A stretch of 64,000 nucleotides of DNA from an uncultured Actinomycetes bacterium (GTDB lineage Bacteria > Actinomycetota > Thermoleophilia > Gaiellales > Gaiellaceae). The translations under genes were made by a program, and so were the position numbers. A model generated the notes under the pieces. It made no database searches, had not been told where the DNA came from, and saw only the letters and a program-made list of their open reading frames with translations. The DNA is taken from the NCBI GenBank assembly GCA_963711545.1, contig CAVQEP010000014.1, forward strand, positions 246,598 to 310,597, given 5' to 3'. Positions within the stretch are counted from its first letter, which is position 1, and each line of letters starts with the position of its first letter. Of the stretch, positions 3,942-25,987 are shown piece after piece.

Positions 3942-5090
3942 GTGAGCATCGCTGATCTCACGCGCCACGCGGTCGACGTCCTGCCCGAAGGTGAGCTCGA
4001 GCGGAAGCTGAAGCTCGGCCGTCCGCTGCGCGTCAAGCTCGGCATCGATCCGACCGCACCGGACATCCACCTCGGGTTCGCCTGTGTGCTCGACCGGCTC
4101 GCGGGGTTCCAGCAGGCAGGGCACACGGTGGTGCTCATCATCGGCGACTACACGGCGCGCATCGGCGATCCCTCGGGCCGGTCCGAGGAACGACCGGTCC
4201 TGCCGGGCGAGGAGCTCGACGCGAACGCGACGGAGTTCGCGGAGCAGGCGTTTCGAGTGATAGACCGCGAGCGCACGGAGATCCGCTTCAACGGCGAGTG
4301 GCTCGGGAAGCTCTCCTACGCGGAGGTCGTGCGGCTCGCACGGACGATCACCGTCGCGCGTATCCTCGAGCGCGACGACTTCGCAAAGCGCTTCGCCGCG
4401 CGCGAGCCGATCTCGATCTCGGAGCTCCTCTATCCGCTCATGCAGGCGTACGACTCGGTTGCGATCGAGGCCGACATCGAGATCGGGGGAACCGACCAGC
4501 TCTACAACCTGCTCGCCGGCCGTGACGTCATGCAGGACTACGGCTTGGACCCGCAGCTCGTCATGACCTATCCGCTCCTCGTCGGGCTCGACGGGGTGGA
4601 GAAGATGTCCAAGTCCCGGGGGAACTACATCGGCATCAACGAGCCACCCGAAGAGATGTTCGGCAAGACGATGTCGATCCCGGACATGGCGCTCCCCCAG
4701 TGGTGGGACCTGCTCGCCGACGGGGGGACGCATCCGGACGATCCGATGCGGTGGAAGCTCGAGTTGGCGCGCCGAATCGTCACGCGCTGGCACGGTGAAG
4801 ACGGCGCACGGGGCGGAGAGAAGCACTTCACGCGCGTCGTCCGCGAGCACCAGGCGCCCGACGACGTCCCCGAGGCACACCTGCCGGAGGGCGATCCGGT
4901 TCACCTCCCGACGCTGCTCGTCGCGCACCTCGGAATCGGCTCGACGAGCGAGGCCAGGCGGCTGATCGCGCAGGGCGGCGTCAAGGTCGACGGGGAGGCG
5001 GTCGCCGAGAACGATCTTCCGAGGGCACGGCTCGAGGGCGCGCTCGTCCAGGCCGGAAAGCGTCGTTTCATGCGGTTTTCTACTGCTTGA
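3942..5090 (+). CDS. tyrS: Tyrosine--tRNA ligase
   Basis: In-frame GTG at 3942, 10 nt after the upstream stop. The Arg/Ser-rich track extension from 3765 overlaps the S9 gene and is rejected. Class I motifs are present: PDIHLGF (HIGH-like) and KMSKS. C-terminal S4-like domain (ARRLIAQGGVKVDGE). Confidence 0.9.
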   Translation: MSIADLTRHAVDVLPEGELERKLKLGRPLRVKLGIDPTAPDIHLGFACVLDRLAGFQQAGHTVVLIIGDYTARIGDPSGRSEERPVLPGEELDANATEFAEQAFRVIDRERTEIRFNGEWLGKLSYAEVVRLARTITVARILERDDFAKRFAAREPISISELLYPLMQAYDSVAIEADIEIGGTDQLYNLLAGRDVMQDYGLDPQLVMTYPLLVGLDGVEKMSKSRGNYIGINEPPEEMFGKTMSIPDMALPQWWDLLADGGTHPDDPMRWKLELARRIVTRWHGEDGARGGEKHFTRVVREHQAPDDVPEAHLPEGDPVHLPTLLVAHLGIGSTSEARRLIAQGGVKVDGEAVAENDLPRARLEGALVQAGKRRFMRFSTA

Positions 5091-5285: not shown

Positions 5286-5423
5286 TTACGTCGAGACCTC
5301 GGCGACCCGTTCTCGGGCCGACGAGGCTTTAACCTGTCATGCCTCTGTTGCAGAGGCAGACTTTGAGCACAAGCTCAAGGTGAAAAGATCGCCGGCACCC
5401 TCGTGGAGTCGGCAATCACTCTT

Positions 5424-6971
<1,548 letters not shown>

Positions 6972-7072
6972 AGGGATTCCGGAGCTCTTACTCCGGAGGC
7001 TCCTGGCTCGTCGATGGCGAAACCTGCCGTCCGAACAACCAGGCCGCCTAGAAGAATGTCGACCTCGAATAG

Positions 7073-7092
7073 ACGCTGCTGAGTTTTGAGAG
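7073..7092 (+). other. 3' half of the 16S processing stem (ITS)
   Basis: acgctgctgagttttgagag is complementary to leader 5266-5285. The ITS is too short for a tRNA gene and none is seen. Confidence 0.6.
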
Positions 7093-7163: not shown

Positions 7164-7702
7164 AACGTGTTCTTTTCGATCAAGAGAACAAGAGCACACG
7201 GTGGATGCCTTGGCGCCAAGAGCCGATGAAGGACGTGGGCGGCTGCGATAAGCGCGGGGGAGGTGCTGACCAACCTTTGATCCCGCGATCTCCGAATGGG
7301 AAAACCTACGCGTGGTAATGCGCGCGTACTTCCAGCTGAATCCATAGGCTGGAAGAGGCAAGCCGGAGAACTGAAACATCTTAGTACCCGGAGGAAAGGA
7401 AAGAAACCTCGACTCCCTGAGTAGTGGCGAGCGAAAAGGGAATAGCCCAAACCTGTGTGATGTGACAGGCGGCAGCCGTTGTCACGCAGGGGTTGTAGGG
7501 CCTGATTCGATCCGCCTGCCGGCGGGTCGGGAAGTTACAAAGTTGCGCGTTAGCCGAAGTGGATGGAAAGCCACACCACAGCGGGTAATAGTCTCGTAGG
7601 CGAAAGCGCGCAGCCTTCCTGATCAGGTTCCTGAGTACGGCCGGGCACGGGAAACCCGGTCGGAACCCGCGGGGACCACCCCGTAAGGCTAAGTACTCCT
7701 TG

Positions 7703-7750
<48 letters not shown>

Positions 7751-9181
7751 GGAAGGGGAGTGAAATAGCACCTGAAACCGTGTGCTTACAAGCGGTCGGA
7801 GCAGCTTCGTGCTGTGACGGCGTGCTTTTTGCATAACGAGCCAGCGAGTTACTCTTCAACGGCAAGGTTAAGGAAACGGAGCCGTAGCGAAAGCGAGTCT
7901 GAATAGGGCGTCTAGTCGTTGGAGGTAGACCCGAAACTGAGTGATCTATCCATGGGCAGGTTGAAGCGGGGGTAAGACCCCGTGGAGGACCGAACCGACC
8001 TAGGTTGAAAACTGGGCGGATGACCTGTGGATCGGAGTGAAAGGCTAATCAAACTCAGAGATATCTGGTTCTCCCCGAAATATATTTAGGTATAGCGTCA
8101 TGCGTTCAATAACGGTTGTAGAGCACTGTTTGGGCTAGGGGGCCTACCAGCTTACTGAACTCAGGCAAACTCCGAATGCCGTTATTCCAGAGCATGGCAG
8201 TCAGAGTGCGGGGGATAAGCTTCGTGCTCAAAAGGGAAACAGCCCAGACCGTCGGCTAAGGTCCCTAATTTCCAGCTAAGTGGGAAACGATGTCCGATTG
8301 CAAAGACAACCAGGATGTTGGCTTAGAAGCAGCCACCATTCAAAGAGTGCGTAACAGCTCACTGGTCAAGTGGTCGGGCGCGGACAATGTAACGGGGCTC
8401 AAGTTGGAAACCGAAGCCACGGACTCCTTCGGGAGTGGTAGGGGAGCGTTCCCAGGCCGGAGAAGCGGCGGCGGAAGCCTGCCGTGGAGGGCTGGGAAGT
8501 GAGAATGCTGGCACGAGTAACGAAAGACGAGTGAGAAACTCGTCCGCCGAATGCCTAAGGGTTCCTGAGTAAAGCTAATCTACTCAGGGTTAGTCGGGAC
8601 CTAAGCCGAGGCCGAAAGGCGTAGGCGATGGCCGACAGGTTGATATTCCTGTACCACGTAGCCACCGCTATCACCGATGGCGGGACGGGGTAGGCTAAGG
8701 AAACCCGGGCGATGGTCGTCCCGGGGTAACCGCGTAGGGCGGCCGGTAGGTAAATCCGCCGGCCACTAAGCCTGAGACGGGACACCGAGCCCCTTCACCG
8801 GGGCGAAGTTCTTGAAGCCATGCCTCCTAGAAAAGCGTCTAGGGAGGTGGCGCGTGCCCGTACCAAAACCGACACAGGTAGGCAGGTAGAGAATACCAAG
8901 GCGATCGGAAGAACCCTCGTTAAGGAACTCGGCAAAATGGTCCCGTAACTTCGGGAGAAGGGACGCCCCGGTAGAGTGAAAACCCTTTTCGGGTTTAGCT
9001 CGAGGGGGCCGCAGTGAAACGGCCCAAGCGACTGTTTACCAAAAACACAGGTCTCTGCGAAGTCGAAAGACGACGTATAGGGGCTGACGCCTGCCCGGTG
9101 CCGGAAGGTCACGAGGAGAGGTTAGCCTTCGGGCGAAGCTTTGAATCCAAGCCCCGGTAAACGGCGGCGGTAACTATAACC

Positions 9182-9957
<776 letters not shown>

Positions 9958-10242
9958 AAGTTCCGACCTGCACGAATGGCGTAACGACTTGGGCACTGTC
10001 TCAACGAGGGATCCGGTGAAACTGTAGTCTCGGTGAAGATGCCGAGTACCCGTGGTTGGACGGAAAGACCCCGTGAACCTTTACTACAGCTTGACGTTGA
10101 AGTCTGGTGTTCGTTGTCCAGGATAGGTGGGAGGCTGTGAAGCGGGGACGTCAGTCCTCGTGGAGCCAACCTTGGGATACCACCCTGCGGATTCTGGGCT
10201 TCTAACCAGAGGCCGTTATCCGGCTCTGGAACAGCGTCAGGT

Positions 10243-10274
<32 letters not shown>

Positions 10275-10424
10275 ATGTAACGGAGGCGCGCAAAGGTTCC
10301 CTCAGCACGGTTGGAAATCGTGCGTAGAGCGTAATGGCATAAGGGAGCTTGACTGCGAGACTGACAAGTCGAGCAGGTGCGAAAGCAGGCCATAGTGATC
10401 CGGCGGTGAAGCGTGGAATTGCCG

Positions 10425-10467
<43 letters not shown>

Positions 10468-10494
10468 CTTCCCAAGAGTCCACATCGACGGAAG

Positions 10495-10624
<130 letters not shown>

Positions 10625-10740
10625 CCATGGGCGCTGGAAGCTTGAGAGGAGTCGCTCCTAGTACGAGAGGACCGGAGCGAACAGACCTCTGGTGTATCAG
10701 TCGTCGTGCCAACGGCGCTGCTGATTAGCCACGTCTGGAT

Positions 10741-10777
<37 letters not shown>

Positions 10778-10915
10778 CTCGAGATGAGGCTTCCCATCCC
10801 CTAGAGGGAGTAAGAGCCGTGGGAGACCACCACGTTGATAGGCGGGACGTGCAAGCGTGGCAACGCGTTTAGCGGACCCGTACTAATTGCTCGAGGTCTT
10901 GATTTTGAACACCGA

Positions 10916-10942: not shown

Positions 10943-11018
10943 CGCGGGAAGCCGCGGCGCTCTTGAAAATTGCGCGTCGAAGCCGGACTGGGGTCTGGCA
11001 CCGGAGTGCGGTAAAGCT

Positions 11019-11132
<114 letters not shown>

Positions 11133-11140
11133 TTAATTCC

Positions 11141-14945: not shown

Positions 14946-15215
14946 TTAGTTGTTGCCGTCTTCCTGCTCGAGCCCGCGCGGAGGCCAATCGTCGTCGGGT
15001 GCGTCGCAGCGGCTCGAGCAGTGCAGCGAAGCGATGTTCTGGAGCGGAACGAGGATGTGCCCGTTCAGCTCGATGTGGGCGACGTCCTCCACGTAGCAGT
15101 AGGCGGTCAGCACGCCTTCCTGGTACTCGCCTCCGAAGAGCGCCACGTCGACCTGCTCGCCCTTGTACTTGTTCGTGTAATCCTCCACCCTCCGGAGCCT
15201 AGCGCGATGCCGCAT
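14946..15215 (-). CDS. Hypothetical small protein (89 aa)
   Basis: ORF with host-like GC3-rich codon usage, lying 10 nt upstream of htpX on the same strand. No family recognised with confidence. Confidence 0.55.
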   Translation of the reverse strand: MRHRARLRRVEDYTNKYKGEQVDVALFGGEYQEGVLTAYCYVEDVAHIELNGHILVPLQNIASLHCSSRCDAPDDDWPPRGLEQEDGNN

Positions 15216-15372
15216 TTCTCCGGGGCCGTCTAGGCCGTAAAGGCCGCTAAATGCTGTGCCCGTGTGGTCTCGGTGTGGTCTCGCCCAAGCGCCCGGAGTT
15301 GCTCATCGGTCGGCGCGTCCCAGCGGTCGGCGTCCGCGGATCCTTCATTTAAACGCTTGTTAGAGTGTTTGC

Positions 15373-15738
15373 GTGCCAGGGAAGGACGGCCAATGCGAGC
15401 TTCTCTGCCTCGACCTTCCGCTCGCCAAACGCCTCCGCAACGAACGGATAGAGCTACAGGCTGCTGCCCTGGTAGCCGGTCTTGCTGGCGCGCTTGGCGA
15501 TCCGACGCGCGTGGCTGTGGCCTCGACTCTTCTACAGGCGGACGAACTGTGTGTCTGTGATCTGTCCTGGATCGTCGAGCGTCCGCAGGCGCTTGTCTCG
15601 CATCATGCCCGGGTTCTGCGTGAGCGCGGGCTCGTGCGTTCACGGCGCGAGGGGAAGATGGTCCTGTACTCCGTAACCGACCAAGGACGGGCTTTGCTCG
15701 GCTCCGTGCTCGCATTGACGAAGCCCGCGTATGTCTAG
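15373..15738 (+). CDS. ArsR/SmtB family metalloregulatory transcription factor
   Basis: 121 aa. LGDPTRVAVASTLL...ELCVCDL...SHHARVLRERGLV wHTH pattern, including the ELCVCDL metal/metalloid-binding box. The start codon is uncertain. Confidence 0.85.
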   Translation: MPGKDGQCELLCLDLPLAKRLRNERIELQAAALVAGLAGALGDPTRVAVASTLLQADELCVCDLSWIVERPQALVSHHARVLRERGLVRSRREGKMVLYSVTDQGRALLGSVLALTKPAYV

Positions 15739-16420
15739 CCACGCAGGAGGCGGTCTGATTCAGCTTGGGACTGTTCCGCCCGGTCCGGCTGCTGCGCTCG
15801 GTCTGTCAGCAGCGGAGCGGTCGCACTGGGAGCATCGGGCTCGGCTGCTTGCATGGAGCGGGATCGCGTGGCACGTCGTCGAGTTCCTGATTGCGCTCCT
15901 CGCCGGTCTCGCCGCGGGCTCGATCGCGCTCATTGGCTTCGGCGCCGACAGTCTCATCGAAGCCATCGCAGGATTCGTCGTCATCTGGCTGTTCACCGGG
16001 CGTCGGATCGGTTCGAGCCACGCCGAACGACGGGCGCAGCAGATGATCGCCGTCAGCTTCTACGTCCTCGCCGCCTACGTAAGCGTTGAGTCGATACGTA
16101 CGCTCGTCAACACCGATCACCCACAAGTGAGCTGGGTCGGGATCGGCTTGGCGGCATTCACCGCGATCACGATGCCGCTGCTCGCCCGTGCGAAGCGGCA
16201 TGTCGGAGCGAAGCTGCACTCGGCCGCGACCGTGAAGGAAGCGTCGCAGACGAGCCTGTGCGCGTATCTCTCTGTGGCCCTGCTCGTCGGGCTCGGCGCG
16301 AATGCCCTCTTCGGCTTGTGGTGGGCCGACCCACTCGCTGCGCTCGTGATCGCGGCTTTCGCCCTCAGGGAAGGCCGCGAGAGCTGGCGTGGCGAAGGCT
16401 GCGCCGACGGCTGTTGCTGA
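15731..16420 (+). CDS. Cation diffusion facilitator-like membrane transporter (TMD only)
   Basis: 229 aa and polytopic. GADSLIEAI...WAD pattern of cation-efflux family TMDs, with a Cys-rich C-terminus (GEGCADGCC). Overlaps the arsR stop by 8 nt. Confidence 0.7.
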   Translation: MSSHAGGGLIQLGTVPPGPAAALGLSAAERSHWEHRARLLAWSGIAWHVVEFLIALLAGLAAGSIALIGFGADSLIEAIAGFVVIWLFTGRRIGSSHAERRAQQMIAVSFYVLAAYVSVESIRTLVNTDHPQVSWVGIGLAAFTAITMPLLARAKRHVGAKLHSAATVKEASQTSLCAYLSVALLVGLGANALFGLWWADPLAALVIAAFALREGRESWRGEGCADGCC

Positions 16421-16546
16421 CTGACTGCGGCCTCGCTCCGCCGATGCCGCGGCGACTGGTTCGGGCGCTGTCCAGGACTATGCTCGTCTCGGTAGACGGA
16501 CACGGCGCAATGGACCAACCGGGGCGTTTTGACCGCCTGGAGGTAG

Positions 16547-18160
16547 ATGAAAGTTCTTGAAGGATTGTCCGGGGGCATCGAGGCCGGGAGCACCTTGTCG
16601 GTGGCTGATCTGGAGCTTCCGGTGAATGGCACGAACGGTGTGCTCCTGGTCTTCTGGAAATCGACCTGACAAGGCTGTCGGCAGGAGTCTCCTGCCGTCG
16701 TCAGGCTCCATGAGCGGTTCGCTGGGGACGGGCTCGAGGTCGTTTACATCGGTGCGATCGAGACCGAGGACTCATGTCGCGCCTGGAAGGAGGAGTTCGG
16801 TCTCGAGTTCCCGGTGATCCCGGACCGCGAAGGGGAGCTGTTCCGCGCGCTCACCAACGGGTGGGTTCCTTGGAGCGTTCTCGTGGGACCTGACCGCAGG
16901 GTCGTGTTCTCAGAGAACGAGTTCGACGAGTCGGGCTTCTCGATCGCCATCCAGCAGATGTATCAGCGTCCCACCGTGGGGAAGGCGAGCTCCCGCCGCA
17001 CCACTGGATCTGCCGGCTGCACAGTGGTGCTAGGCGGTGGAACCGGTGGGTTGGTTGCCGCGAACGAGGTTCGGCGCCGGCTCCCATCCGAGCATCGGGT
17101 CGTGCTCGTCGACCGCGCCGCGGCGCACGTGTACCAGCCGTCGCTGCTGTGGCAGATGGTGGGCGAGCGTCGCCTGAGCCAGTTCACGCGGCCGCTTGCA
17201 GGGCTACAGAAGAAGGGGATCGAGTTCCGCAACACGGAAGTCCAGATACTCGACCTCGACAACCGGGTCGTCGTTACCCCGTCCGGAGATCTCGACTACG
17301 ACTCGCTGGTCGTCTCGTTGGGCGCCCAACTTGTGCCCGAGACGGTCGAGGGCTTCGACGAGATGGCCCTTAACCTTTATAGCCCCGCCGGGTGCGACCA
17401 GATCCACAACGCCCTTCGGGGCTTCACAGACGGCGTCGTCGGAATCCTCATCCCGGAGCTGCCGTTCAAGTGCCCCGCCGCGCCATACGAGGCCGCTTTC
17501 CTCGCTGAATCGTTTCTACGCAAGAAGGGGATCCGCCGGAACGTCGAGATCCACCTGTTCACGCCCGAGCACACGCCGATGCCCGTTGCACCCGCGACTC
17601 TTGGTGGCTCGATCGCAGACATGCTCGCCGCGCGCGGTATCCATTACCACCCACTGTTCACCTTCGAGAAGCTTCGGCCCGAGACGCGGGAGGTCGTCGC
17701 CTCAGACGGCCGTACGCAGCAGGTCGACCTGCTGATCGGCGTCCCACCCCACCACGCCCCTGAGGTCGTGCGGTCGTCACCGCTCCTCGGGGTTTCGGGC
17801 TTCGTACACGTTGACTCGCTGACCCTTCAGACCGATTTCGAGGACGTCTACGCGATCGGTGACGTGGCGACCATCAAGCTCTCCAACGGTAAGGCTCTCC
17901 CAAAGGCGGGTGTCTTCGCCCACGCCGAGGCCAAAGTCGTAGCGCGTCGGATTGCCGATGCGGCCGAGCGCAAGACGTCCGGGGCCGTGTTCGACGGTCA
18001 CGGCTACTGCTGGATCGAACTGGGCGACGGTCGGGCTGGATTCGCTGGGGGCAACTTCTACGCCGAGCCCGATGCCCGGGTCAAGATGAGACGACCTCGG
18101 CGCACGCTCCACTGGGGCAAGGTGGCATTCGAGAAGTGGTGGCTGCACCACTGGTTCTAA
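16547..18160 (+). CDS. Thioredoxin-fold (redoxin/TlpA-like) domain fused to a sulfide:quinone-oxidoreductase-like FAD flavoprotein. It has an in-frame TGA (16667-16669) at the first Cys of CxxC, so it is a candidate selenoprotein, or alternatively a pseudogene.
   Basis: ATG at 16547 is preceded by GGAGG and by an in-frame TAG. Forty codons later comes VLLVFWKST-TGA-QGC. The frame stays open with no further stop into the track ORF 16814..18160, through EEFGLEFPVIPDREGELF...WSVLVGPDRRVVF (the remainder of the thioredoxin fold). Then come GGGTGG (FAD), FKCPAAPYE and GYCWIELG (SQR-type redox Cys). The 16814-18160 portion is certainly coding. The read-through interpretation is inference. Confidence 0.6.
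16679..16697 (+). promoter_or_regulatory. Candidate bacterial SECIS hairpin
   Basis: cggcagga-gtc-tcctgccg is an 8-bp perfect stem. The loop G (16687) is 20 nt downstream of the U of the TGA. A possible 3-bp lower extension pairs ctg (16675-77) with cag (16702-04). Confidence 0.45.
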
Positions 18161-18190
18161 GACTGGTCAGTTTGCGCCGTTGAGGCGCTG

Positions 18191-20827
18191 GTGCGAGCCT
18201 TCTCCCAAGTGGAGCAGACGTTCCTGGAGCGCGACCGCGAGACGGAGGCACTGGGCCGCTGGCTCGATGATGTCGGACGCTCCGGTGCAGGCCACTTCGT
18301 CCTTGTCGCAGGGGAAGCGGGTATCGGCAAGACGACGCTAGTGCGTCACTTTTGCGAGAGCCGCAGTCGCTCGCGCCTGTTCTGGGGCCTTTGTGATCCG
18401 CTGGCGACGCCTGCTCCTCTGGGGCCGATCGTCGAGGTCGCCGCGCAGCTGGACGGCGCGGCTGCCGAAGTCGTAGCGGGGGTGGCGCGGCCGTACGAGG
18501 TCGGCCGAGCAATGCTCGAGGATCTGGCCGGCCAGAGGTCGGCGATCGTGGTGCTCGAAGACCTCCACTGGGCCGACGACAGCACGATCGATGTCCTGGT
18601 CTATCTCGCGCGTCGCATCGACCGCGCTCCAGTGCTTCTGATCGGCACGTACCGAAACGACACGGTCGATGAGTCGCACCGGCTTCGGCTGGCGCTCGGT
18701 CTGCTCGCGACGGCGCCGCGAGTCGAGCGTCTCTCCCTGCGGCCGCTCTCGCTCGAAGCGGTTCGCAGTCTTTCGGGCGCGGCAGGGCGGGATGGAGATG
18801 TCGTGTTCGCAACCACCCGCGGCAATCCGTTCTTCGTTAGCGAGCTACTCGCCTCGCCTTCTGGCGAGCTCCCGGCGACCGTGCGCGAGGCCGTGCTCGG
18901 CCGCGTGTGGCGGCTGGACGAGGATGCGCGGGCTCTGCTCGATCTCGTGTCGGTGGTGCCGCCTCAGGCCGAGCTCTGGCTGGTCGATGCGATTCCGGGC
19001 GCAGCGAGTGGTGCGGTTGAGCGGTGCCTGATCGCCGGGCTCCTCGAGCGCGACGGGCAAGCGGTGTCATTTCGCCACGAATTGGCAAGGCTCGCGGTCG
19101 AGCAGGCGCTGAGCCCTGAGCGGGCGGCGAGGCTCAACGAGCAGGTGATGCGCGCGCTCGAGGCTGCCGGAGCTGAGCACGCTCGGCTCGTCCACCACGC
19201 CGAAGCTGCCGGCGACGCACCTGCGCTGCTCCGGCATGCGACCGCTGCCGGCAAACGCTCGGCGGAACTCGGGGCCCACCGCGAGGCTGCAGAGCAGTAC
19301 GGTCGCGCGCTCTCGGTCGCGGCGTCCTTGCCCGATGTGGAGCGCGCGGACCTGCTGTCCCGCTACTCCTTCGAGCGCTACCTGACTGACCGACTCGATG
19401 AGGCGATCCTTGCGCAGCGACAGGCCGTCGAGCTCTTCGGCGCTGCGGGCGACCGCGAACACGAGGGCGACGGATTGCGCCGTCTCTCGCGCTACCTCTG
19501 GTTCGGCGGCCACAACGAAGAGGCTGAGACAACAGCACACGAGGCGGTGACGGTGCTGGAGCAGCTTCCGGAGGGCGCAGCGCTTGCCCGTGCGTACAGC
19601 AACGTCTCGCAGTTGCGGATGCTGGCATACGACAGCGGCGCGGCGATCGACTGGGGCACACGCGCGCTTCGTCTCGCAGAGCGCTGCCAGGCGGACGACA
19701 TCGGCATCCACGCGCTCGCAAACATCGGCTCCGCCGAAGTGCTCATCGGACGCGAGGCGTCCGGTCGCGCGAAGCTCGAAGCCAGCCTCGCACGAGCCCG
19801 CGCCCTCGGGCTCGACGACGACGCTGGCCGTGCCTATGCCAACCTGGCCACGCTGGCGGTCGAGCGGCGCCAGTTTGCGCTCGCCGATCGCTACCTCGCG
19901 GAAGGGATTGCGTATTGCGACGAGCACGACCTCCTTTCATACGGCCTCTACCTCCGCGCTTGGCGGGCGCGCCTCGCGCTCGACAGCGGCCGCTGGAGCG
20001 CGGCCGCGAAGCTCGCCGCGGAAGTCCTGGCGCACCCACAGGCGTCAGCGCCGACGCGAATCGTCGTCTCTGTCGTCGGCGGGCTCGTCGCGGTTCGCGT
20101 GGGCGAGGCAGAGCGCGGGGAGGCAATGCTGGACGAGGGGCTGGCGACAGCTGCGCCGACAGGCGAGCTACAACGGCTGGCTCCAGTCGGCGCCGCGCGG
20201 GCGGAAGCAGCCTGGCTTCGCGGAGACTCAGCGGGCGTGGACGAGGCAACCGCCGCCGTCGCCGCTCTTGCAGCTCAGCGGGGTCAGCGCTGGCTGCTCG
20301 GCGACCTCGCTGTGTGGCGGCAGCGCTCCGGGCTGACGACGTCGGCCGCCCATGTGTCGCCACCGGCCGAAGCCGAGCTAGCTGGTGATTTTGTGAGGGC
20401 GTCTACGTTGTGGGGCGATCTTGGCTGCCCGTACGAGGCGGCGCTTGCATTAGCAGGGGCCGAGGAAGAGCCAGCACTACGGCGGGCGCTCGGAGAGCTG
20501 CAGCGGCTCGGCGCGACGTCTGCGGCTCGGATAGTCACGAGGCGGCTGCGAGCACGAGGCGTGCACGACGTCCCGCGCGGCCCCTACCGAGCGGCGCGGC
20601 AGAACCCGGCAGGACTCACTGCACGCGAGCTCGACGTGCTCGCACTGCTCGCACAACGGCTGAGCAACGCCGAGATCGCCGGCCGGCTCGTCCTTTCGCC
20701 GCGCACGGTCGATCACCACGTCTCACGGATCCTGGCGAAGCTAGACGTCCACACACGCACGGAGGCCGTCGATGCAGCGCGTGAATTAGGCGTCGTGAAA
20801 GACCAGGTGTCTCAGCGCGAAAAATAG
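18191..20827 (+). CDS. Large ATP-binding LuxR-family regulator (LAL/MalT-like: AAA/NACHT-type ATPase + TPR-like + LuxR HTH)
   Basis: 878 aa. Walker A GEAGIGKTTL. C-terminal LTARELDVLALLAQRLSNAEIAGRLVLSPRTVDHHVSRILAKL. Confidence 0.9.
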   Translation: MRAFSQVEQTFLERDRETEALGRWLDDVGRSGAGHFVLVAGEAGIGKTTLVRHFCESRSRSRLFWGLCDPLATPAPLGPIVEVAAQLDGAAAEVVAGVARPYEVGRAMLEDLAGQRSAIVVLEDLHWADDSTIDVLVYLARRIDRAPVLLIGTYRNDTVDESHRLRLALGLLATAPRVERLSLRPLSLEAVRSLSGAAGRDGDVVFATTRGNPFFVSELLASPSGELPATVREAVLGRVWRLDEDARALLDLVSVVPPQAELWLVDAIPGAASGAVERCLIAGLLERDGQAVSFRHELARLAVEQALSPERAARLNEQVMRALEAAGAEHARLVHHAEAAGDAPALLRHATAAGKRSAELGAHREAAEQYGRALSVAASLPDVERADLLSRYSFERYLTDRLDEAILAQRQAVELFGAAGDREHEGDGLRRLSRYLWFGGHNEEAETTAHEAVTVLEQLPEGAALARAYSNVSQLRMLAYDSGAAIDWGTRALRLAERCQADDIGIHALANIGSAEVLIGREASGRAKLEASLARARALGLDDDAGRAYANLATLAVERRQFALADRYLAEGIAYCDEHDLLSYGLYLRAWRARLALDSGRWSAAAKLAAEVLAHPQASAPTRIVVSVVGGLVAVRVGEAERGEAMLDEGLATAAPTGELQRLAPVGAARAEAAWLRGDSAGVDEATAAVAALAAQRGQRWLLGDLAVWRQRSGLTTSAAHVSPPAEAELAGDFVRASTLWGDLGCPYEAALALAGAEEEPALRRALGELQRLGATSAARIVTRRLRARGVHDVPRGPYRAARQNPAGLTARELDVLALLAQRLSNAEIAGRLVLSPRTVDHHVSRILAKLDVHTRTEAVDAARELGVVKDQVSQREK

Positions 20828-20900: not shown

Positions 20901-21275
20901 ATGGACGGAAACGGAAACGGCAAAGTGGTCGTCAACCTCGCGACTGGGCTCGAGGATCCCGAGCGGGTGACCGTGGCGTTCCTCGTCGCCGGCGCAGCCG
21001 CCACACAAGGCAAGGACGTCACCATCTTCCTGACCAAGGAGGCAGTGCGCCTCGCACTCCCGGGTGTCACCGAAGGCACCGCCTGCGACGGCTGCCCGCC
21101 TCTTCCGACGCTGGCGGCGCAATTCGCGGAGGCCGGCGGGAGACTGCTCGTCTGTCCGATCTGCCTCGGTGCGCGCAAGCTCAGCGAGGACGGCCTCATC
21201 GATAACGCGCAGCTCGGCGGTGCGACGCCGCTCTGGCAGTGGATTGGCGATGGCGCGACGGTCTTCAGCTACTGA
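20901..21275 (+). CDS. DsrE/DsrF-like sulfur-relay family protein
   Basis: 124 aa. KVVVNLATG...VTIFLTKEAV...LLVCPICLGAR...GGATPLWQWI pattern. AAGGAGG RBS lies 6 nt upstream of the ATG. Confidence 0.8.
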   Translation: MDGNGNGKVVVNLATGLEDPERVTVAFLVAGAAATQGKDVTIFLTKEAVRLALPGVTEGTACDGCPPLPTLAAQFAEAGGRLLVCPICLGARKLSEDGLIDNAQLGGATPLWQWIGDGATVFSY

Positions 21276-25883: not shown

Positions 25884-25956
25884 TCCCCAGTAGCTCAATT
25901 GGCAGAGCATCCGGCTGTTAACCGGAGGGTTGTTGGTTCGAGTCCAACCTGGGGAG
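25884..25956 (+). tRNA. tRNA-Asn (anticodon GTT)
   Basis: I folded it by hand into a perfect 73-nt cloverleaf. Acceptor tccccag/ctgggga, D arm gctc-aattggca-gagc, anticodon arm tccgg-ctGTTaa-ccgga, T arm gttgg-ttcgagt-ccaac. CCA is not encoded. Confidence 0.92.
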
Positions 25957-25987
25957 CTACGAAGACGCTGCTGAGGGCCAGAAACGC

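Follow-up and report, generated by a model that had tools for sequence, protein, structure and literature searches.

A predicted selenoprotein joining a selenocysteine-containing redoxin to a sulfide:quinone oxidoreductase-type flavoprotein

Introduction

Sulfide:quinone oxidoreductases (SQRs) work through a two-cysteine center that is attacked by sulfide; the persulfide of one cysteine reduces flavin adenine dinucleotide (FAD) and then quinone, and the other cysteine hands sulfur to an acceptor (PMC9163753). [quoted passage not shown] Selenocysteine (Sec) has entered this family at least once, in the HxxU type of Sec-SQR that was found by deep-Sep in Desulfosediminicola (PMC12013277; PMC13188914, a 2026 prokaryotic selenoprotein catalogue). 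Stand-alone Sec redoxins with a UxxC motif are listed in that catalogue as ‘Prx-like thiol:disulfide oxidoreductase’ (PF00578), ‘Redoxin family protein’ (PF08534, HEU0032618.1) and ‘thiol-disulfide isomerase-like’ (cd02966) (PMC13188914). Here, we describe a gene that very probably combines the two, encoding a Sec-containing redoxin and an SQR-type flavoprotein in one chain. It lies on a 64,000-nucleotide (nt) stretch of DNA from an uncultured Gaiellaceae bacterium (assembly GCA_963711545.1, contig CAVQEP010000014.1, positions 246,598 to 310,597), and this whole stretch is referred to as the window.

Results

The coding sequence of the fusion (16547-18160, plus strand) starts at an ATG at 16547 and runs for 537 codons, UGA-41 included, to a TAA at 18158-18160. 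Reading of the sequence places a Shine-Dalgarno-like GGAGG at 16539-16543 and an in-frame TAG at 16544-16546, directly before the start codon; GGAG-type purine-rich motifs also precede the aligned start in many orthologs. The sole internal stop is the TGA at 16667-16669. Read through, the frame yields 537 residues containing ...GVLLVFWKST-U-QGCRQESP..., with the putative Sec at the first position of a UxxC motif (FWKST-U-QG-C). The open reading frame (ORF) list of the window divides this frame into a separate ORF of 40 amino acids (aa) at 16547-16669 and a gene of 448 aa begun at a GTG (16814), inside the redoxin domain. From the TGA it is 49 codons to the next in-frame start. The original prediction had pointed out the ATG with its GGAGG and TAG, the single TGA, the GTG call and the otherwise open 537-codon frame, and all of these were found again in the sequence. 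A scan of 15200-18400 for promoters and terminators found none.

Orthologs were sought in one genome per GTDB species, and 31 full-length loci were returned (loci are numbered L, matched proteins P). They come from Gaiellales, Solirubrobacterales, other Thermoleophilia, other Actinomycetota, Gemmatimonadota, one Acidobacteriota metagenome-assembled genome (MAG) and one Desulfobacterales MAG. The aligned codon is TGA in all 32 sequences, that is, in the window and in 31 of 31 orthologs from at least four phyla, and is never TAA, TAG, TGC or TGT. TGA is the sole internal stop in 25 of these 32 genes, and the remaining seven have indel frameshifts farther downstream, mostly in long-read MAGs. Among the long-read-derived MAGs, L021, L026, L032, L034, L035 and L041 carry fusion genes with indel frameshifts 3’ of the TGA, and these frameshifts are probably assembly errors and not signs of pseudogenes. 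No ortholog lacks the thioredoxin part; where a short upstream gene ends at the TGA, a gene caller has split the conserved frame.

The ratio of nonsynonymous to synonymous substitution rates (dN/dS), calculated for ten Thermoleophilia sequences, is 0.15 over the 40 codons before the TGA as compared to 0.17 over the 100 codons after it. These similar, low values indicate that both sides of the TGA are translated in one frame. A stop at codon 41 would split the thioredoxin fold between strand beta1 (VLLVFW) and the active-site helix. A recent nonsense mutation, which the original prediction had named as a possible undoing of its claim, is ruled out because the TGA is common to Thermoleophilia, other Actinomycetota, Gemmatimonadota, Acidobacteriota and Desulfobacterales, with an upstream dN/dS of about 0.15.

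Homologs were also searched among 5.8 billion predicted proteins, of which the best 120 were considered. All 120 (72-100% identity) are shorter than 537 aa, with lengths of 448, 467, 472, 486-487 and 496 aa, and the 496-aa entries start with “xGCRQESP”, one codon past the position of the TGA. The called starts differ in position, and no restart codon is conserved among the orthologs. Gene callers halted by a conserved TGA would be expected to produce just such a pattern. The 120 closest entries are named ‘sulfide:quinone oxidoreductase’ or ‘FAD-dependent oxidoreductase’.

The UGA is followed by a hairpin resembling a bacterial Sec insertion sequence (SECIS), CGGCAGGA-GUC-UCCUGCCG, at 16679-16697 on the plus strand, which was identified from the minimum free energy fold, pairing statistics and RNAalifold. 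By bSECISearch-type criteria, the distance from the UGA to the apical loop should be about 16-37 nt, the stem should have 4 bp or more, and one of the first two loop bases should be G. The stem in the window is 7-8 bp long and begins 9 nt after the UGA (9-10 nt across orthologs), and its apical loop, 17 nt past the UGA, opens with a G; the hairpin thus agrees with these criteria in distance, stem and loop. Across the 32 sequences 94.6% of the hairpin cells are paired, as compared to 33-62% in a control in which the partner columns were slid. RNAalifold, run unguided, recovered the same 7-bp helix.

The stem also covaries. A change of CAG to CGG (Gln to Arg) in the 5’ arm always comes with a synonymous change of CCU to CCC (Pro) in the 3’ arm, and the changed pair is present in 12 of the 32 sequences; counted as an A-U to G-C double change, it occurs in 10 of the 30 sequences that are distinct. 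Its spread over the tree reflects at least about three independent switches between CAG/CCU and CGG/CCC. One Gemmatimonas MAG (L024) has a G-C to A-U change in the stem (GAC/GUC). In genomes rich in G and C at third codon positions (GC3), CCU is used exactly when its partner is A, which points to selection on the RNA. The hairpin that the original prediction had proposed to look for is therefore present at the right distance after the UGA, conserved and covarying.

UGA otherwise keeps its ordinary meaning in this genome. TGA ends 17 of 30 other GC3-supported genes of the window and is the commonest stop there, so UGA has not been reassigned. A scan of the window for further TGA-interrupted coding frames gave two antisense artefacts only, with a filter that also missed the fusion gene itself. 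Other selenoprotein genes do occur beside the fusion in related genomes. In L009 and L032, whose fusion proteins are 78-79% identical to the window protein and which belong to Thermoleophilia, an arsenate reductase gene (ArsC; minus strand, L009 7627-7977 and L032 7629-7979; TIGR00014, 108.6 bits against a cutoff of 106.05) has a TGA at the catalytic Cys (IYHNPN-U-GSSRN). This gene is convergent with the fusion, 16 nt from its stop, and has its own hairpin, CGCAAUGC-CGUGA-GCAUUGCG, 11 nt after its UGA. The gene shows that these Thermoleophilia MAGs use Sec beyond the fusion, and Sec-ArsC with a UxxS motif is a family listed in the catalogue (PMC13188914). In L024, an AhpC-TSA-type, peroxiredoxin-like (Prx-like) gene (about 4199-4672, plus strand) with a TGA at 4304 (FYRGWW-U-PYC) is found 1.7 kb upstream of the fusion; its product is similar to the Prx-like UxxC selenoproteins of the catalogue but reaches the cutoff of no NCBIfam model.

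Forms of the fusion with Cys in place of Sec were sought in two ways. A query of residues 1-75 with Cys at position 41 matched 14 proteins, of which 13 are orphan mini-ORFs ending in ...FWKST or ...FWKAT. The fourteenth, P0121, is encoded on a 575-bp metagenome contig (L050) that has a TGC at the aligned codon (nucleotides 159-161) and an intact hairpin. It is the sole sequence with TGC for TGA, and it also carries a frameshift and a switch to an unrelated or chimeric 3’ end; it was discounted as a Cys-form ortholog and attributed to decay of the copy, to sequencing error or to chimerism. P0137 and P0138 were rejected as full-length Cys forms, being frameshift-riddled translations. HMMER, run exhaustively against 1.84 billion cluster representatives, returned no intact full-length Cys form. 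Where the fusion has its UGA, the matching ResA, TlpA and Redoxin families have the leading Cys of their CxxC motif. Within these data the fusion carries Sec in every case, which looks unusual; Cys-containing homologs were reported for all nine families newly predicted by deep-Sep (PMC12013277).

The original prediction had described the product as a thioredoxin-fold CxxC motif, with TGA at the first Cys, fused to an SQR-like flavoprotein, and Pfam and PDB matches agree with this description. The redoxin domain (aa 14-129; 16586-16933, plus strand) is of the ResA/TlpA-like thioredoxin fold. With C in place of U, it matches Pfam AhpC-TSA (PF00578) at 48.6 bits (cutoff 26) and Redoxin (PF08534) at 34.8 bits (cutoff 26.6), both over aa 14-129, and ResA structures at an E of about 1e-10. 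Its invariant residues are U41, C44 (16676-16678), E72, C77 (16775-16777) and the cis-Pro loop W106-V107-P108, E72 being the counterpart of the buried Glu80 of ResA. The N-terminus, MKVLEGLSGGIEAGS..., has no hydrophobic segment by inspection of the sequence, and the domain is therefore not an exported one of the ResA/TlpA type.

A linker (about aa 141-157; 16967-17017, plus strand) joins the two domains. In an alignment of 26 sequences it is a gap-rich block rich in A, P, T, E and R, and its length (about 17-40 residues) and composition vary among orthologs. The FAD flavoprotein domain of the SQR type follows at aa 158-537 (17018-18157, plus strand) and is 380 aa long, not about 440 as had been estimated in the original prediction, the difference being made up by redoxin domain and linker. 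This length, exactly 380 aa, is shared by all 25 orthologs measured. The Pyr_redox_2 match scores 64.3 bits (cutoff 26.1) and extends, together with FCSD_central, from aa 160; human SQOR is matched at an E of about 1e-31. In the FAD motif VVLGGGTGG (17024-17050), G163, G165, G167 and G168 are invariant, and the third Gly and the Thr vary.

Both SQR redox cysteines noted in the original prediction (FKCPAAPYE, GYCWIELG) are present, as Cys309 (17471-17473) and Cys488 (18008-18010). They are invariant in 26 of 26 sequences and align with the two redox cysteines of human SQOR, which we take to be Cys201 and Cys379. A Trp/Phe-rich predicted helix (about 18105-18157) ends the protein and holds the invariant residues H522, W523, K525, F528, E529, W531, W532 and W536; it may correspond to the amphipathic helices with which SQRs bind membrane and quinone. 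Alignments with the SQRs of A. ferrooxidans and A. aeolicus reach aa 533-534, and confidence in this C-terminal region is low in an AlphaFold2 (AF2) model. That model, made for the 496 aa after the TGA from a shallow alignment of 26 sequences, was too poor for comparing folds or assessing how the domains dock, and was not used (mean predicted local distance difference test 58, with values below 50 in the redoxin; predicted template modeling score 0.56). In total, 138 residues are invariant in the 26 clean sequences.

The closest relatives of the window protein are found in Gaiellaceae and in other Thermoleophilia MAGs. The nearest relatives without a redoxin are stand-alone flavoproteins of about 380 aa, which are 35-49% identical and share the same two cysteines and C-terminus. 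In a neighbor-joining tree, the flavoproteins of the fusion form one clade nested among such stand-alone enzymes, a pattern that points to one fusion event, after which the gene spread across phyla. The placement of L020 in this tree, and its pairing with L013, is a trimming artefact. A separate protein from the search of representatives, P0212 (644 aa), combines an ArsR-type helix-turn-helix, a rhodanese and an SQR-type flavoprotein in one chain. Both of its redox cysteines are replaced (YKSPVAPYE, GNYILDLG), and for this reason it may have evolved from the enzyme into a sensor or regulator.

Genes around the fusion were annotated non-exhaustively in the 32 loci. No fixed operon surrounds it, yet sulfur carriers and ArsR regulators recur. 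A rhodanese or DsrE-type gene lies within about 3 kb in 15 of the 32 loci, and rhodanese genes flank the fusion in L004, L007, L009, L032 and L034. A DsrE2-like gene stands 47-61 nt upstream in L025, L030 and L031; in L025 and L030 the order arsR, dsrE2, fusion is operon-like, and L025 has a stand-alone flavoprotein paralog downstream as well. DsrE-like genes near the fusion recur in four loci, and in L008 a dsrE-SnoaL pair lies directly upstream of it. The window has a DsrE-like protein with two CxxC motifs (20901-21275, plus strand) 2.7 kb downstream of the fusion, followed by a SnoaL-like gene; it is 82% identical to the DsrE of L008 (Pfam DsrE) and is, as judged from sequence, a candidate sulfur-carrier partner. 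ArsR-family regulators adjoin the fusion in 14 of the 32 loci. Four of these are ArsR-rhodanese fusions directly next to it (L020, L023, L024 and L047), and in L022 and L027 the order is arsR, fusion. No persulfide dioxygenase was noticed among the neighbors annotated in this non-exhaustive way.

In the window itself, directly upstream of the fusion, an ArsR-family regulator with a metal/arsenite-type ELCVCDL motif (15373-15738, plus strand; Pfam HTH_5) overlaps the start of a cation diffusion facilitator (CDF) efflux protein gene (15731-16420, plus strand; Pfam Cation_efflux), and such a pair lies near the fusion in eight of the 32 loci, the window included. An AAA_16/LuxR-type regulator of 878 aa (18191-20827) begins 30 nt after the fusion stop. 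ArsM-like S-adenosylmethionine-dependent methyltransferase genes (Methyltransf_31) lie 34-165 nt downstream of the fusion, on its own (plus) strand, in L005 (3020-3628), L016 (7672-8295) and L024 (7675-8298); in these three loci from two phyla the ArsM-like N-terminal region is without the usual Cys in ‘GVGNP’. A 1-Cys peroxiredoxin is found near the fusion in L014. Farther away, the window carries a complete rRNA operon (16S 5423-6969, 23S 7178-10906, 5S 11018-11134) and a tRNA-Asn gene (25884-25957).

Discussion

The in-frame TGA is, with high confidence, the Sec codon of a 537-residue protein in which a redoxin is joined to an SQR-type flavoprotein, a claim drawn from comparison of sequences. 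The codon would be recoded with the aid of the hairpin that starts 9 nt downstream, acting as a bacterial SECIS. With UGA at codon 41, synthesis of the whole enzyme would then depend on selenium.

What the Sec does can be proposed from analogy with known enzymes. The linker would tether the Sec-redoxin (U41-x-x-C44) to the flavoprotein, which would oxidize sulfide and, in the manner of SQRs, send the electrons by way of FAD to quinone. The Sec41 selenolate would take sulfane sulfur from the C488 persulfide (C488-SSH) and so serve as a built-in acceptor. C44 and/or C77 would hold or relay this sulfur, possibly as a Se-S-S bridge, and it would then be passed on to carriers of the rhodanese or DsrE type or to a small thiol. 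Expression may be under the control of ArsR-type, possibly persulfide-sensing, regulators. The higher nucleophilicity of selenium, and its being a better leaving group in S-S/Se-S exchange, would explain why Sec is retained. The rhodanese, DsrE-type and ArsR genes that recur around the fusion, and the joining of ArsR, rhodanese and flavoprotein in P0212, speak for such a role. The suggestion of the original prediction that the Sec/Cys pair could resolve persulfide on the flavoprotein is plausible. This acceptor and relay role is put forward tentatively, with a little under an even chance of being right in its own terms; as a whole, a Sec-redoxin/SQR fusion with such a mechanism is probably the best explanation of the data. 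A stronger form is conceivable and is held with more doubt: an obligately selenium-dependent sulfide/persulfide:quinone oxidoreductase, in which the Sec-x-x-Cys redoxin would be the compulsory intramolecular acceptor or relay and Cys could be no substitute. Were this true, the inability of Cys to replace Sec would explain the absence of intact Cys forms. It would also link the detoxification of sulfide and the cycling of sulfur to selenium supply in soil lineages that are abundant (Gaiellales, other Thermoleophilia and Gemmatimonadota).

Several observations weigh against this account. UxxC is the classic motif of dithiol/disulfide exchange and is untypical of a single-Cys sulfur relay, and simple resolution of a Se-S-H adduct by C44 would release sulfide again. 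The neighborhoods are loosely organized and varied, and they also hold genes for CDF, ArsM-like methyltransferase, ArsC and peroxiredoxin. The fold of the window hairpin is by itself unexceptional for its GC content (z = -1.44), and the covariation depends on one main pair and a few independent events. Finally, no selA, selB, selD or tRNA-Sec was detected when the 64-kb window was searched with ARAGORN and Rfam and about 400 kb of related loci with ARAGORN, and tblastn with E. coli SelA, SelB and SelD sequences likewise gave no match. This null result over less than 0.5 Mb is uninformative and is not evidence of absence.

The alternative that survives best keeps the Sec recoding and reverses the role of the redoxin. 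It would be an electron-input module, and the enzyme a (seleno)thiol:quinone oxidoreductase for a dithiol or protein substrate with no need of sulfide. Reduced U41/C44 would be oxidized by C309/C488, and electrons would move on to FAD and quinone, as in DsbA-DsbB or a VKOR-thioredoxin-like fusion. Thiol-disulfide exchange has as its signature the UxxC motif combined with a buried Glu of the ResA type (E72) and a cis-Pro loop; established redox potentials make the flow from thiol to quinone thermodynamically downhill, and the invariance of all five redox residues fits a relay. Against it, the flavoprotein has every hallmark of an SQR and branches within a group of stand-alone SQR-type enzymes, which function with no redoxin. 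The neighbors are sulfur carriers and persulfide-type regulators with no obvious dithiol substrates among them, and the lack of a signal peptide or membrane anchor makes an envelope disulfide-forming role unlikely. On balance we regard electron input through the redoxin as unlikely, and sulfane-sulfur transfer to Sec41 remains the preferred role.

Less probable again, and improbable overall, is a second alternative in which the recoding also holds and the N-terminal domain is a Sec peroxidase or reductase whose selenenylsulfide is recycled by the flavoprotein. Its targets would be peroxide, arsenate, selenium or tellurium oxyanions, or polysulfide, so that detoxification would be linked to sulfide or to the quinone pool. 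The best Pfam match of the domain is indeed AhpC/TSA, and the neighbors include the ArsR with ELCVCDL, the Sec-ArsC of L009 and L032, the ArsM-like enzymes of L005, L016 and L024 and the 1-Cys peroxiredoxin of L014. However, such arsenic-type neighbors occur in a minority of loci, and the motif is of the TlpA/ResA type (W-x-x-x-U-x-x-C) and not the PxxxTxxC of peroxiredoxins. Quinol is also too weak to reduce a selenenylsulfide, and an NAD(P)H-binding motif is absent from the flavoprotein, which is SQR-like in that region.

That no Sec is made at all, the TGA being a true stop (of a pseudogene, or of a 40-aa leader before a flavoprotein gene) or being read through with a standard amino acid, fits the way in which gene callers and submitters annotate mini-ORFs ending in FWKST plus proteins of 448-496 aa, and fits the machinery null in the <0.5 Mb of window and related loci, but it is highly improbable given a stop that would cut the thioredoxin fold, equal purifying selection on the upstream 40 codons, TGA in 32 of 32 sequences across phyla where a sense codon would suit read-through better, a covarying hairpin kept at SECIS distance, no conserved restart, a UGA that is not reassigned, and other selenoproteins encoded in related genomes.

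Sec at UGA-41 would change how these genes are represented. The N-terminal 40 codons are at present orphaned in databases as hypothetical mini-ORFs, and the truncated calls mean that the active-site domain of a widespread enzyme is missing from public proteomes. The presence of the fusion in at least 31 species-level genomes across soil and sediment phyla implies Sec decoding, and a selenium requirement, in those organisms. With no intact Cys ortholog, and with the independent use of Sec in the HxxU enzymes, the family offers a natural system for asking in what respect selenium outperforms sulfur in persulfide and polysulfide chemistry. It would also add a thioredoxin-fold, Sec-based partner to the known SQR-rhodanese fusions, suggesting an alternative route for sulfane sulfur off an SQR.

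Comparison with known systems

Sec at the first position of a thioredoxin-fold CxxC motif, SQRs, and one Sec-SQR are known; the fusion itself is unrepresented in the sources checked. No model of NCBIfam release 20 reaches its cutoff with the fusion protein, a redoxin-SQR fusion is absent from the 2026 prokaryotic selenoprotein catalogue (PMC13188914), and such a fusion goes unmentioned in the GOS paper, Peng 2016, deep-Sep and BSepDB. The statement in the original prediction that this is not a described selenoprotein family thus holds within NCBIfam release 20 and the catalogue, as far as checked.

On the redoxin side, the closest solved structures are ResA/TlpA (1ST9, 4NMU; E about 1e-10), whose W-x-x-x-C-x-x-C-type motif, buried Glu and cis-Pro are kept in the fusion. 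Those proteins are extracytoplasmic, membrane-anchored, contain only Cys and act in cytochrome c maturation, whereas the domain described here has Sec and neither signal nor anchor. The ResA model NF002854 gives 49 bits against a cutoff of 170, which makes the domain a ResA-type redoxin and not an ortholog. Scores are lower still for the ResA-like WAxxUGC selenoprotein (NF041054, 25.8 bits against 300; the fusion motif is WKxxUxxC) and the SelL-related redox protein (NF040769, 18.8 bits against 120). The stand-alone Sec redoxins of the catalogue share the fold, the Pfam families and the position of Sec, the first residue of a CxxC-type motif. Their entries describe no flavoprotein, and the fusion adds a 380-aa SQR-type enzyme and the invariant Cys77. 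HEU0032618.1, compared here by its catalogue description, could be a member of the fusion family under a generic name.

On the flavoprotein side, no solved structure comes closer than human SQOR, a type II SQR (6OI5, 8DHK; E about 1e-31 over aa 160-510), though the similarity is distant. Its VKCAGAPQ and YTSCPLV segments align with FKCPAAPYE and HGYCWIE of the fusion. It relies on an external small-molecule acceptor for sulfane sulfur and has neither a redoxin domain nor Sec. The SQR of C. pinatubonensis resembles the fusion in having an extra domain with a nucleophilic residue that handles sulfane sulfur, a role that in the fusion would fall to Sec41. That domain has a rhodanese fold with a single Cys and is encoded in an sqr-pdo operon, whereas the fusion uses a thioredoxin fold with Sec-x-x-Cys.

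A related selenoprotein is the type III SQR of the selenoprotein subtype (NF049943), a member of the same broad flavoprotein family; among NCBIfam models it gives the fusion its best match (E = 1.7e-67), at 228 bits and below the cutoff of 525. Its members are stand-alone enzymes of about 400 aa with Sec for the C-terminal redox Cys (HxxU), whereas the fusion keeps Cys488 (HGYC) and has its Sec in the added redoxin. Two such HxxU enzymes were met in the searches, in a Deltaproteobacteria MAG (L042) and a Binatia MAG (L043); both are stand-alone (match at 6001-7092 in each), with a TGA at LHTI-U-LL aligned with Cys488, and both lie far from the fusion clade in the tree. The distance between the two groups suggests that Sec was acquired independently in each. 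One flavoprotein family thus appears, from its sequences, to have recruited selenium twice, by replacement of a redox Cys in the HxxU enzymes and by gain of a Sec-redoxin domain in the fusion.

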